Made by a program: the position numbers. A stretch of DNA of 64,000 bases from Escherichia coli (GTDB lineage Bacteria; Pseudomonadota; Gammaproteobacteria; Enterobacterales; Enterobacteriaceae). The first letter of the stretch is position 1. Every line of letters starts with the position of its first letter. Shown here one piece after another: positions 21,001 to 27,000 of this stretch. The stretch is from NCBI RefSeq assembly GCF_013315695.1, contig NZ_CP054353.1; one strand, given 5' to 3'.

Positions 21001-24000
21001 TCAGTAAAACAACATATCATTATGCCATGGTGTACGCGGCCAGTGTACGCTTACTTAAGGAATGAGGGATAAATTGGATATTATTACTTCACTTTGCTTT
21101 TTTATGAGATTCATCACATAAGTGGGGTTTTACTGTTAAATAATCTGAATTTATTTGATATCCGTAAAGCAGATGTCTCAGTTCGCTGTTTCCAACTTTT
21201 GTTATTCCTCTGGGGCGAATGCTGTTTCCGCTGGAATATTCACCTGGCACCAGTCTCAGAAAAGCCATGAGCTGTTCAGGATTGGAAAATCGCGAAAAAT
21301 CACCCAGTTCAGCAACCAGGGTTATTGCGATTAGTTGACCAACACCTTTAAGAGCCTGCAACTGGCAGACCAGATTGCACAGAGATCACTCAGGTAACAG
21401 GCGAGATATTTCCTGATCGAGTTGAAGTATGCGATCTTCAATCTGCTCCAGATTCTGACAATAATGTTGAAAGCAATCTGTTGAGATAGCAGACCAAATG
21501 ATTGATTAACTAACCAGGTTCGATGTTTGCCGGTTCAGTGCTTCCTGGCATAACGTTTGTCTGTTCGTGTCACGTTTTGCAGCGGCACGGGCTCTGATTA
21601 AATCCCGCATAGCTTCATGAGTCAGCTCAGGGAGCCAGACTGGGGGAACCTCACCATCCCTCAGTAACCTGGCGAGAGAAATTACGTCCCGATGGTCATT
21701 TTTGATCCTGTCTGCCGGTGATTTGGGTATACGGGAAGGGGGCAATAACCAGGCATTTTATATTCATCACTGTGAGTTGATGATATAGCCCAACCCCACA
21801 GGGAGCACCTTCATAGCAGGAAAGAATGTTTCCGTAAGGTCCCTGCAATTTCTGACATAATCGATGTACAGCCAGGGCTTCGTTGTTAATCGTACCATAA
21901 TAACGAACTTCGCCAAGCCATTCAGGTGTAGCAATCGCCAAGGTTTCTTTATGAACATCCAGCCCGACGTAAGCTGCAATATTTTCCGAATCCATGATGA
22001 CCTCTGGAATATCCCACCAATGCTATAGTGAGTATATAAAGGTCATATCATCTACGTGTTCTTCGGCAACGATCACAGTGGAGAGCGTGGAGCGCTACTG
22101 TACGGGCTGATTGGCACCTGCCGACTGAACAGTATCGACCCGGAAGCGTATTTGCGCCATATCCTGGGCGTACTACTGGAATGGCCTTCCAACCGTGTTG
22201 ACGAACGCTCGCCATGGAATGTAGTATATTACCAATAAATAACAGTCAATACGGCACTCGGTTAACGCTTACAAATAAGAATAGACAGGACAAATGTAAA
22301 CTACATTTGCATATTCTGTATAACATTATCACACAAGAGAATGACACCAACATTTCTCTGGTGTATAATTCTTCTTTGTGCTCGTAAAATTAATGTTGCG
22401 GAGTAATACACCTCCTTTGTTATATTTAAATCATTCAATAAAACGCCTAATTTTGCAGGGCTATTACTGGATAAGTGATTAATAATCTTCTGCTCCATTT
22501 AATATAGAATAACCTGTTCAGATAATAATACTTTATATCCAACTATATAACATATTTTTTGTCATGTTTTTTATAAAACTTTAAATTAATTGCAAAATGG
22601 CATCTGAATCGATCATAGTTTGGCATTCGAATCGATCATGATTTGGCTCTCTTGCTCCGGCTTTATCCACTTCCTCTCAGACGACAGTCAGTGTCCTGCT
22701 CTGACTGAACCTCTGCACCGTTGTTACGTACCCAGCGTTTGTTTTTCTATTAGAGTCACTTCAGTAGGCACATCAGATGCCAACGCAACATTCCCTGCCA
22801 TAAGCGCAGCCAGAACGCCTGCTACAACTAAACTATTCCTGGTGATATTGCTCATTCTCTTTCTCCATTTGTCGAGGATTTGGGCGTTGATTTTCGACGA
22901 GCTCCAGTTGCAACTCCAGTCTTAAGGTTATATCGGGATAGCACACAAGTGTTACACGCATAAACAAAAAACACCCAAAAAGTATTATTCCATAACATTT
23001 ATTCATGGAAGATAACAATGAAACGATTCAGCTATGTTTTTTGAACTAAAAAATACTTTATAAGAACATCCCAATTTTGGAGGCGATACTCATTCTCCCC
23101 CTGATAACTAAACGCTCTCGTCCGACAGGGTGTGGAGACTATCAATATCCACAGTAATGATGCTGACTTTGTTTTCGTTTGAGGAAATGACATGCACGAT
23201 TACCTGCTTTTTTTACTGGGACTTACACCGCTTCTGGCGATGATCATTTTGATTCTGAAAGTCAAAATGCCCATACATTATGCCGTGCTTAGCACTCTCT
23301 TTATCACGCTGATTCTGGGCGGTTTTTTCTGGAACACTCCTGTTCAGGATATGGGGTTTGCTGTTGTATATGGAGCAATCAAAGGTCTGTGGCCAATTGT
23401 GATTGTCATCCTGGCAGCCATTTACAGCTATAACCTGATGAATGCGACAAAAAGCATGGATATTCTGAGAAATGTTCTCGCGAGCGTTAGTGATGACAAA
23501 CGTATCCAGGTACTTCTTATCTTATGGTGTTTTGGTGGATTTCTTGAGGCGGCAGCCGGATACGGTACAGCGGTAGCAATCCCCATTGGTATACTGATTG
23601 CTCTGGGCTTTAACCCACTAAAAGCAGCGATTGCATCACTGGTTGCTAATACAGTCCCTACAGCGTTTGGGGCAGTAGGTATACCTGTCTCTGTACTTGC
23701 TGAACAAGTTAATTTACCTGTAACCACACTCAGCGGGACAATTATTCTTCAACTGGCACTGTTCAACATTCTGCTTCCTTTCGTCATCGTCGCGATTATC
23801 GGTGGTGGTATGAAGACTATACGAGGCGTTGGACTAATTACCCTGATGTGTGGTGTCAGTACATTAATTCCCCAGTATCTGGTGGCTGTTAATCTTGGCG
23901 CGGAACTCCCGGCTTTCGCGGGTAGTCTTGTCAGTCTGATAGTAATAGTCTTTATGGCGAAAAACCGTAAAGAAAAAACCGCCCCTGAATTGGGGATGCG

Positions 24001-27000
24001 GACGATTTCCTGGACTGCTTTATTATGCCAGCCCACATTGTTGGCGGTACATTTCAGGGCTGACTGCACCCAGCGATAATTTTATACGCCGCTCGTTATA
24101 CCATCTGATGTAAGCATCTACATGCTGCATGAACTTTTCTGGCGTGATGCCCGACCATTTACGCCCATAATACATTTCCGTTTTCAGTCTGCCGAAAAAA
24201 CCTTCGCATGCGGCATTATCAGGTGAACATCCTTTACGGGACATTGAGCGAATAAGACCTGCTGCATTCACTCTTTCCAGCCAGCCTGGCCAGCGATAAT
24301 GCCCACCTCTGTCACTGTGTATCACCGGTCGTTCGCCAGCATTTAACGTTTCGACAGCGCTATCCAGCATAGTGTTGACCAGCTCAGCATCGGGGCGTGT
24401 ACTGAGAGACCAGCTAATAACTTTTCCATCGAAGCAGTCCACCACCGGTGACAGCCAGACTTTACCTGCAGGGAGTTGGAACTCCGTGATATCTGTCAGC
24501 CATTTCTGATTAGGTTGCTCCGCCTTAAAATCTCTGGCGATAAGGTTATCCGGAGCCGGTCCGATTTCTCCGCAATATGAGCTGTAGCGACGACGACGGT
24601 TACGGCTGACGACAAGCTGTTCCTCCACCATAAGTCTGCGTACAACCTTTTCTGATAGCCGACCCCCCTCATGCCTGAGCATCGCATGCAGGCGACGATA
24701 GCCATAACACTGGTAATTACTGTTAAATATATCTGTCAGCATCGTACGTATCGTGGCGTATTTATCACCGGCTTTCAGTGCAGCCCGGTGATAAAAATAA
24801 CTGCTACGGGTAAGGCCCAGAACATGCAGTAATTCTGTCAGGGGATATGTTTGTCTCAGGGCATCAGCGATCTTTGTTTTTTCTCTGTTGTTCAGGTGAC
24901 TGATACTGATGCCCGGGTCTTTTTTTATGATTTCCTCCGCCTTTTTCAGAATATCCAGCTCCATCTGCCGGCGGCGTATTTCCTGATTCAGTCGGGCGAC
25001 TTCCTCCCGCAACGCATCGCGTTCTGCCTCCAGGGAAGGTTCGTTATGTTTACGCATAGTCTGGTAAGCACTGTTGCCGATAATTTCATCTTTCTATTTA
25101 TACAATACCGCACGACTGACACCAATACGCCTGGCGATCTCACTGGCTGATACTTGTCGTGTACAGAGTGCCATGACAGCCTGACGTTTGACTTCTGGTT
25201 CAAAGGGCGCAACCGGGTTGGCCTTACTGGTAAATATACGTCGTCTGTCGGGATAAAGTTCATTAACCCAGCGAGCGAGTACATCAGTGCAGGGATAACC
25301 CAGGGCTCTGCTGGTAAACGCCAGGCAGCAGCCGTGGTTAAGATAATGTTCAACGGCAACCTGTTTTTGCTCATCGGAGTAACGGTGCTTATGACGAATG
25401 GATTCTTTTGCGCCACCACCTGCTTCCCATGAGCGGATCCAACGCCGCAGATTTCTTTTCGAAGGGTAGCCCAGTTCGCGTACGACGGGAGCCAGCTTCT
25501 TACCATATTTGAAATAAAGCTCAATGGCGCGGATTTTTTCTTCTTCAGTAAACATGTTTTATCTCCTGAGAGTCCAGGAAATCGTCCGCATCCCCCAACG
25601 AGCTGCTGTTTAAATTCGGGAGGATAATTAGGGCAGCCTTTTCGCCTGCCGGGAGTCACATTTTTCTGCATATCTGACACTTTGGTTCCCACTACTTATT
25701 TGGTGGACACCACTTTGTCTAATTCGTCAGATTCTGACCAGACGGTTCAGGCTGTATGCTTACAGTTGTTCAGGAGTAATAGTCCAAAGTATCGGGAATT
25801 TTCCAGACAATCCTGATAATACGCTTATGAACATTACAACACGCTCATGCGGAACCTGGATGGGGGAAGGAACGGTGAAGCTGTTAGCGAATGACCGGCG
25901 TTTGTATAAACGCCGGTCATGATGAATGATATTTCAGAATATACCTCGGGCTAAAATACCGGGACAGAGATCAGGCATGATTAATCTGCAGCATTTTTAA
26001 TAACAGAAGTACTGAGCTTACTTTACCTTTGATGATGGAATAGTTATTTCCGTCGGTACTCATTTTTCCCTGAAATAATGTCACGGATGTTTCTTCCTGC
26101 TGATCCTGCAGGCGCAGTCGTAAAGTCATATTTTTAATGAGCTGAGATCCGGGTGGCAAGGGGTATTTGCTGTCAGATACTGGGCGACTGAGTCTGATGT
26201 GGCGCGTATACAGCCCGTTTTCGTACAGGGTGGCCTCTGTTATGGTGTCAGTGACCAGCATGTGGGAGACAATGCTGTATTCTTTTTTAAAGCCCCCACC
26301 AGAAACGGTGATTGTAATGATAATGGTCTTCTCGATCGAGATGTAAATACCCGTTTCGTTATACTGTCCGTATCGGAACCATGAGAACTCAGTTGCATTC
26401 CAGCCATGATCCAGAATATGTGCATTTTTTTGCCTGATAGTTTCTTTTTTTATTCGCTCATGTTTAAGGCATAACAGGCAGATAAATAATGTCAGAAAAA
26501 GAAAGCTAATAATGAGAGCAAGAGCGATATAGTCTGTCATAGGGTAATACATATTCTCTCCGGTAGAAGAAGGGCCGCAAACGCGGCCCGGGCTGTTATC
26601 AGAAAGAGTAACGGAAGTTGGCGTTGATCGCGTTATCCACGTTGTATTTACCAAATGCCGATTTCTCAAACTCAAGACCGAAGCGAAGATTATCGCGAAT
26701 TTCGGCGTTGAGACCAACATTCATGAGCATACGACCGTCTTTTTCACCTTTGATACGTTTCTCACCGGACGCATCACGCAGTACGGTTTCACCGTTGGCA
26801 AACAGGTCAAACTGGTAGCCAAGGCCGGCGCGGGCTGTGACTTTCCAGTCCTTACCGGAGAAGGATTTACCCACATCAACACCGGTACGCCCAATCAGCG
26901 GATTAAAGTCCTTATCCTTCATGGTGAGGTTCATTCCCTGGTCCTTCCAGGAGAACTGTTTCCCGGATACAGCACCGTAAACAAGTTCCGCCTGCGGCTC

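Follow-up and report, generated by a model that had tools for sequence, protein, structure and literature searches.

A truncated lactate permease gene and an inactive IS3-family element at a probable deletion joint in an Escherichia coli pathogenicity island

How did half of a lactate permease gene come to lie against a single insertion sequence (IS), with unrelated DNA on the other side? We addressed this question in a 64,000-nucleotide stretch of an Escherichia coli genome (contig NZ_CP054353.1), referred to here as the window. The locus is very probably a deletion joint within an ExPEC pap-sat-iutA-kps pathogenicity island, where it holds one inactive 1604-bp copy of an IS3-family element. 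The first-pass annotation had seen a lactate-permease-family gene cut by an IS3-family element, and both family assignments are borne out, the former by Pfam and TIGR00795 matches and the latter by rve and HTH domains together with the NCBIfam model NF033516.

Positions 23192 to 23991 (plus strand) contain the 5′ part of an LctP-family L-lactate permease gene that belongs to the island; it comprises 266 codons plus 2 nt, in agreement with the cut at about 265 codons originally proposed. When we aligned it with the intact gene of an E. coli ST69 island (NZ_CP102488), we found 92.5% DNA identity over 800 nt, and the alignment stopped at 23991. The open permease frame continues into the IS as far as 24079, giving an ORF (23192-24079) that corresponds to a 295-aa chimera. 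The fragment matches PF02652 (Lactate_perm) with 239.9 bits over profile positions 3 to 258 of 522, and scores 241.8 bits against TIGR00795 (lctP), under the cutoff of 341, while the intact ST69 homologue reaches 409.2; a full-length family profile (about 520-530 positions) is not matched. The fragment is LctP family by descent but a truncated pseudogene; at the identical locus PGAP gives the label 'L-lactate permease, incomplete, missing C-terminus'. It shares its transporter family (PF02652, TIGR00795) with lldP and glcA of E. coli K-12, but it is an orthologue of neither LldP (273 bits, cutoff 918) nor GlcA (243 bits, cutoff 1121). There is also a likeness to the LctP permeases linked to lutABC in L-lactate utilisation clusters, as the intact ST69 homologue likewise precedes lutA, lutB and lutC homologues. 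Compared with all of these, the window gene retains the N-terminal half only. The lutABC neighbourhood is circumstantial evidence for the predicted role of the intact homologue in lactate transport.

The ST69 island shares the upstream context of the window; its permease is complete at 518 aa and lutA, lutB and lutC come next, while neither the 3′ half of lctP nor lutABC was found anywhere in the 64-kb window. The existence of this sister island with an intact permease and lutABC indicates that the window IS marks a deletion joint. As noted earlier, the sequence downstream of the IS is not permease, and the permease does not resume at any point past it. What lies there (25596-25763, minus strand) is the left end of ISEc8, an IS66-family element, comprising the terminal repeat, the leader and the first 25 tnpA codons, at which point, inside tnpA, the IS interrupts it. 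This flank is 99.4% identical to ISEc8 copies over 168 bp, the tnpA layout being taken from the annotation of locus L003. A complete ISEc8 has a terminal repeat and then tnpA, tnpB and tnpC; here no more than its first 168 bp remain, a fragment and not an element. In NZ_CP124504, ISEc8 is uninterrupted at the matching site and adjoins the same 'hypothetical' gene. In the ST69 island ISEc8 points the other way and borders on other sequence; this island is a sister of the ancestor rather than the ancestor itself.

Between the two flanks, the IS extends from 23992 to 25595 (minus strand, 1604 bp) with both ends complete. These limits come from the flank alignments, in which homologous permease is alignable up to 23991 and ISEc8 starting at 25596, and from independent copies of the element. 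They are slightly narrower than the span of 23991 to 25597 given at first, whose outer T and A are flank bases. The terminal inverted repeats, transposase-distal (23992-24016) and transposase-proximal (25571-25595), are 100% complementary across 25 bp, GGGGATGCGGACGATTTCCTGGACT. Of the 26 bp first reported for them, 25 are perfect and the 26th is a mismatch, reading T at the left end and G at the right. A perfect pair of this length falls within the approximately 20-40 bp typical of the IS3 family, while the 5′-TG...CA-3′ termini of that family are lacking. In all contexts examined the element ends in GGGGATGC...GCATCCCC and the adjoining base may be T, C, G or A, GGGG/CCCC being the end of the 1604-bp unit in at least 8 unrelated contexts. 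A repeat scan also returned a 41-nt inverted repeat at 83% (23976-24016 and 25571-25611), which we attribute to chance, since its extra 15-16 nt belong to lctP and ISEc8 and are missing from other copies. The IS is matched at full length in 827 E. coli genomes. When one genome per species was scanned for exact repeats, 5 loci came up, which served to define the ends and are too few for statistics.

The transposase gene (24023-25555, minus strand) is a pseudogene consisting of a single 510-codon frame with a TAG at 25094-25096, as seen from codon comparison and a PGAP note. Relative to an intact copy (L011), this TAG is W154*, the codon being TGG in intact copies, and 10 further substitutions are present. 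What had been taken for an orfA/orfB pair is thus one ORF split by an in-frame stop, which yields an apparent 'orfA' of 153 aa (25094-25555) and an apparent 'orfB' of 344 aa (24023-25057). These two bear HTH and rve domains, arranged as usual, and PGAP labels a divergent copy (L020) 'programmed frameshift', as would be expected of a normal active IS3-type element whose orfA and orfB are joined by programmed -1 frameshifting. We consider such an element very improbable here, since both ORFs lie in one frame with a lone TAG between them, intact copies elsewhere have TGG and one 1533-nt CDS for a 510-aa transposase, the related ISKpn38 is likewise single-ORF, and the PGAP flag on the window copy is 'internal stop'. 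The two-overlapping-ORF layout of the IS3 family is therefore lacking even in intact copies. The domains found are an rve/DDE integrase core (PF00665, 67 bits), HTH_21 and HTH_Tnp_1, and an intact copy scores 426.5 bits against NF033516 'IS3 family transposase' (cutoff 160). With this in-frame TGG to TAG change the window copy is dead, unable to make transposase.

As in the first-pass annotation, the element bears no specific name: RefSeq and PGAP give only the generic 'IS3 family transposase', all cluster names are likewise generic, and a literature search for a name of this IS found nothing specific. Its closest named relative is ISKpn38 (a name as applied by PGAP to Klebsiella plasmid copies), with 61% amino acid identity between the transposases over 509 aa. 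By ISfinder convention, a new IS name is given below roughly 95% amino acid identity, and by this measure the window-type IS is different from ISKpn38. Both encode one 510-aa transposase without a frameshift, both show the domain order of two N-terminal HTH_Tnp_1-type regions, HTH_21, rve and rve_2, and their repeat cores, TGCGGAC(A/G)A(A/T)TTCCTGGAC, are related. ISKpn38 is from Klebsiella, however, whereas the hosts of the window-type IS seen here are mostly Escherichia/Shigella. IS150 shares the DDE/rve core, with 42.7% identity across transposase residues 206-507. With the canonical IS3-family elements (IS3, IS911, IS2, IS150), the window-type IS has in common terminal inverted repeats, an NF033516 score above the cutoff and, in one clean insertion, an apparent 3-bp target duplication. 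It differs from them in lacking the orfA/orfB overlap and the -1 frameshift, in an extra N-terminal HTH region of about 120 aa (the IS3 model matches residues 121-504 only), in its GG...CC rather than TG...CA termini and in its slightly greater length of 1604 bp.

The clean insertion is a copy inside IS21 (L022) which, compared with an empty site (L010), shows a 3-bp TAT duplication, a single case in which a 2-bp TA reading is possible; IS3-family elements duplicate 3-4 bp of their target. Subtraction of the 1604-bp IS and the 3-bp duplication leaves a complete IS21 (istA, istB) of 2130 bp, with the IS 28 nt from one tip. Elsewhere, the window-type IS is repeatedly located about 28 nt inside IS21 terminal repeats.

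Many copies bear an extra 27-29 bp per side, themselves inverted repeats, and one 1661-bp unit lies in a plasmid umuC gene with a 4-bp duplication. From these the window copy could be taken for a longer 1661-bp IS that has nested 53-bp inverted repeats and has lost sequence at both ends, or for one mobilised from alternative inner ends. We find this hardly credible: the extra sequences are IS21 terminal repeats, which in L022 bound a complete IS21, and the 1604-bp unit has identical GGGG/CCCC ends in at least 8 unrelated contexts. We accordingly dropped the 1661-bp element, as well as a similarity to tandem 'outer/inner binding sites' judged by eye, whose outer parts belong to IS21. A more tentative reading, to which as a whole we give somewhat less than even weight, would be that the IS belongs to an ISKpn38-like lineage not yet described within the IS3 family, marked by a single-ORF transposase with an additional HTH region at its N-terminus and by GG...CC ends, that prefers sites about 28 nt inside IS21 terminal inverted repeats; that such insertions gave rise to the 1661-bp units, in which IS21 tips alone flank the IS; that these units and a 52-bp tip-to-tip mini-IS21 were apparently mobilised in trans by the IS21 transposase, with 4-bp duplications as the result; and that the window copy is an off-target, dead member of this lineage.

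The TAT duplication in L022 makes the missing duplication at the window copy informative. As first noted, no target duplication is visible there, the left flank being ...GAATT and the right flank CAACG.... We infer the order of events and the deletion mechanism as follows. The ancestral order would have been lctP-lutABC ... ISEc8 (pointing leftwards), the hypothetical gene and sat. Copies of the IS may have inserted into codon 267 of lctP and codon 26 of the ISEc8 tnpA, with recombination between them deleting the intervening DNA; or a single insertion may have been followed by a deletion outward from one IS end. By either route the 3′ half of lctP would have been lost together with lutABC, any sequence farther on and the greater part of ISEc8, leaving a single IS between unrelated sequences without a target duplication. 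W154* may have been acquired later by the surviving copy or may already have been present. The earlier proposal that a deletion accompanied the insertion stands as far as the loss of downstream DNA is concerned, given the intact permease and lutABC of ST69, while a deletion that accompanied the insertion and one that followed it are indistinguishable. Among 5426 complete E. coli genomes, no match covering at least 80% of the query was found for the reciprocal junctions (right end of the IS with the lctP 3′ half; remainder of ISEc8 with the left end of the IS), and with no intermediate in these genomes the two-copy route is not favoured over the one-copy route.

It could also be that the IS entered an lctP′/ISEc8′ junction already made by an earlier, unrelated deletion in which it had no role. 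Other IS fragments and truncations abound in the island, which makes IS-independent deletions plausible in general. Yet a simple insertion should give a 3-bp direct repeat, as in L022, and the window flanks are ATT and CAA; nor did any genome among the matches spanning the junction have an IS-free lctP′/ISEc8′ junction. We regard a premade junction as unlikely and retain a deletion bounded by the IS itself.

The scar has been widely inherited, as the lctP′-IS-ISEc8′ configuration is colinear, at 99% identity or more, in 486 of the 5426 complete genomes (about 9%), where it is annotated as pseudogenes. The RefSeq gene order is pap ... lctP′ - IS - sat - iutA′ ... kps, interspersed with numerous IS remnants. 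The joint is like the other IS-bounded deletions of pheV-type ExPEC islands (CFT073-like pap-sat-iutA-kps), one of many scars with nothing distinctive about it, and represents ordinary, already annotated pathogenicity-island decay adjoining sat. No functional consequence of it is evident; as known from K-12, E. coli retains chromosomal lldP and ykgEFG. The one wider point, the IS21-end habit of the window-type IS, would be of interest to insertion-sequence specialists and annotators. The joint itself records that, beside the sat toxin gene, a widespread ExPEC virulence island has lost lctP-lutABC, an accessory module for taking up and oxidising lactate, and the joint could act as a lineage marker of this island variant.

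The ORF at 23192-24079 (+ strand) opens with part of a lactate permease gene (lctP'): in profile searches its first 266 codons, which precede the start of the insertion sequence (IS) at 23992, scored 239.9 bits on Pfam PF02652, where they cover positions 3-258 of the 522-position profile, and TIGR00795 (lctP) likewise matched the fragment. The first-pass annotation of an LctP-like ORF truncated by an IS was sound. Models of the K-12 paralogues LldP and GlcA gave 155 and 143 bits on the fragment, far under their cutoffs, so it is an orthologue of neither. The frame stays open for 29 codons inside the IS, giving a predicted 295-aa chimeric ORF.

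We placed the IS, whose transposase is on the - strand, at 23992-25595 (1604 bp), since the alignment with an intact homologous permease gene stops at 23991 (…CTGAATT/GGGG) and that with ISEc8 begins at 25596 (CCCC/CAACGAG…). Independent copies from plasmids and chromosomes of E. coli, E. albertii, Klebsiella and Citrobacter confirm these ends, because their common sequence stops at the same GGGG/CCCC amid unrelated neighbours. The terminal inverted repeats (23992-24016 / 25571-25595) are perfect over 25 bp, GGGGATGCGGACGATTTCCTGGACT; an IS with inverted repeats had been recognized earlier, but the terminal T and A then assigned to it are flank bases. A repeat scan gave a longer inverted repeat, 41 nt at 83% (23976-24016 / 25571-25611), that takes in adjacent bases of lctP on one side and ISEc8 on the other; copies elsewhere lack the added stretch, which is probably due to chance. 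As originally noted, no target duplication borders the window IS, the adjacent three bases being ATT on the left and CAA on the right. When an insertion outside the window (L022; flanks GACCGTTAT/IS/TATTTGCC) was compared with the empty site in L010 (GACCGTTATTTGCC), we observed one clean insertion with a 3-bp TAT duplication, for which a 2-bp reading is possible.

The transposase contains HTH_Tnp_1, HTH_21, rve and rve_2 domains by profile search, and an intact copy scored 426.5 bits on the NCBIfam model 'IS3 family transposase' (cutoff 160), in agreement with the family first proposed. The supposed orfA/orfB pair, however, is one 510-aa ORF with a nonsense mutation. ORFs 25094-25555 and 24023-25057 lie in one common frame with a single TAG (25094-25096) between them, while intact copies have TGG at that codon and encode one 510-aa protein; the usual IS3-family -1 frameshift is therefore absent from this IS. 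PGAP labels an identical locus 'IS3 family transposase; internal stop', and with W154* plus ten substitutions the window copy is dead. A divergent copy in E. coli A24 (L020:2564-4095) is labelled 'programmed frameshift' by PGAP; the intact copies are one unbroken ORF, and the label is probably a frameshift mutation annotated as programmed slippage. The IS could not be assigned to a named element, as the first reading had it: names in the database protein cluster are all generic, and the literature searched gave none. The nearest named relative is ISKpn38 (61% identity over 509 aa), alike in its single-ORF layout and related repeat core, while IS150 shows 42.7% identity across the catalytic part.

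Beyond the IS the permease does not continue, as had been reported; the sequence is instead the left end of ISEc8 (IS66 family; 25596-25763, - strand, reading toward the IS, 99.4% identity), comprising the terminal repeat, leader and 25 tnpA codons. One record, NZ_CP124504, has an unbroken ISEc8 at the same site with the same hypothetical gene adjoining; ISEc8 was thus present first and was cut later. Separate from this fragment, a second IS66-family element at 44097-46182 has about 86% identity to ISEc8 across 2.1 kb.

The sequence upstream of the permease, with small hypothetical genes and IS110, IS66 and ABC-transporter remnants, has a counterpart in E. coli ST69 (NZ_CP102488) at 96.6% identity over 3 kb. 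In that strain the permease gene is complete, encoding 518 aa, and homologues of lutA, lutB and lutC come after it. The rest of that permease and the lutABC sequence were not found anywhere in the 64-kb window, and the IS is thus a deletion joint; together with the ISEc8 flank, this comparison supports the initial view of an LctP-family gene truncated by an IS3-family element with downstream loss. Because its ISEc8 has the opposite orientation and a different flank, the ST69 island is a sister of the ancestral island and not the ancestor. The window remnants upstream of lctP' (21506-22855; an IS110-family transposase pseudogene, an IS66 transposase C-terminal end and a peptide ABC-transporter binding protein fragment) are older than the deletion, since the ST69 island has them too.

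The data show a single IS between two unrelated truncated sequences, without target duplication, and an intact permease operon elsewhere. As to mechanism, direct IS copies situated in lctP and in ISEc8 tnpA could have recombined with each other, or the IS could have inserted once and DNA next to it been deleted afterwards. A search of 5426 complete E. coli genomes found neither of the reciprocal junctions, so these routes cannot be told apart. Insertion of the IS into a joint already made is unlikely, because it should have left a target duplication and the window IS has none. The earlier statement that a deletion accompanied the insertion holds as regards the deletion, which may have come with the insertion or after it.

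Many IS copies carry 27-29 additional bp per side, themselves inverted repeats; a longer 1661-bp IS was considered and ruled out, the additional bp being IS21 terminal repeats. At L022:100-3836 they delimit an IS21 that is complete, istA and istB included, and that measures 2130 bp when the inserted IS (1604 bp) and its 3-bp duplication are left out. This IS21 bears its own 4-bp GTGT duplication, and the IS3-family element lies within it, 28 nt from one of its tips. Other copies lie inside the other IS21 repeat (L025:1505-3108), in opposite orientation between diverged IS21-like tips (L017:2472-4122), and between IS21 tips in a 1661-bp 'tips-only' unit in plasmid umuC (L011:1501-3161), where the 4-bp ATAG duplication is of the length typical of IS21. 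The same 1604-bp IS is repeatedly found about 28 nt inside IS21 terminal inverted repeats at these loci. These arrangements suggest that the IS may prefer IS21 ends as a target and that IS21 may mobilise units bounded by its tips. A 52-bp IS21 tip-to-tip sequence without insert, TGTCAACGCCACGATGTTTGACCGTTACCGTCTTATATCACTGGCGCTGACA, occurs in 1093 E. coli records (e.g. L023:2501-2552 and L024:2501-2552); in one case, NCTC86 (L023), a 4-bp TTTG direct repeat flanks it, which would fit a minimal mobilisable derivative of IS21, though it could be an excision or deletion scar.

The window IS has intact ends without IS21 tips, and the IS21 association leaves the reading of the window unchanged. The region 15990-16110 contains a degenerate 53-bp piece from an end of the IS (16033-16085, - strand, 88.7% identity), which adjoins IS21-interior-like sequence (…caccatttggattgtccgct…) and an IS2 terminal repeat (TGGATTTGCCCCTATATTTCCAGACA); it is an older trace of the IS21-plus-IS association within the island. 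A lone 25-nt IS21 terminal-repeat tip, ccgtcttatatcactggtgctgaca, is found at 12198-12222 (- strand) with no IS21 body adjoining.

The block formed by lctP', the IS, the ISEc8 fragment and the hypothetical gene is colinear with at least 99% identity in 486 of the 5426 complete E. coli genomes; in many of the 486, lctP is cut further, at 23480, and in some ISEc23 is inserted into the IS. Around this block, pap, sat, a truncated iutA, cbtA/cbeA and kps make up the gene content of a classical ExPEC pathogenicity island. The joint is thus an inherited scar that was annotated already, and as a finding it is an ordinary one.
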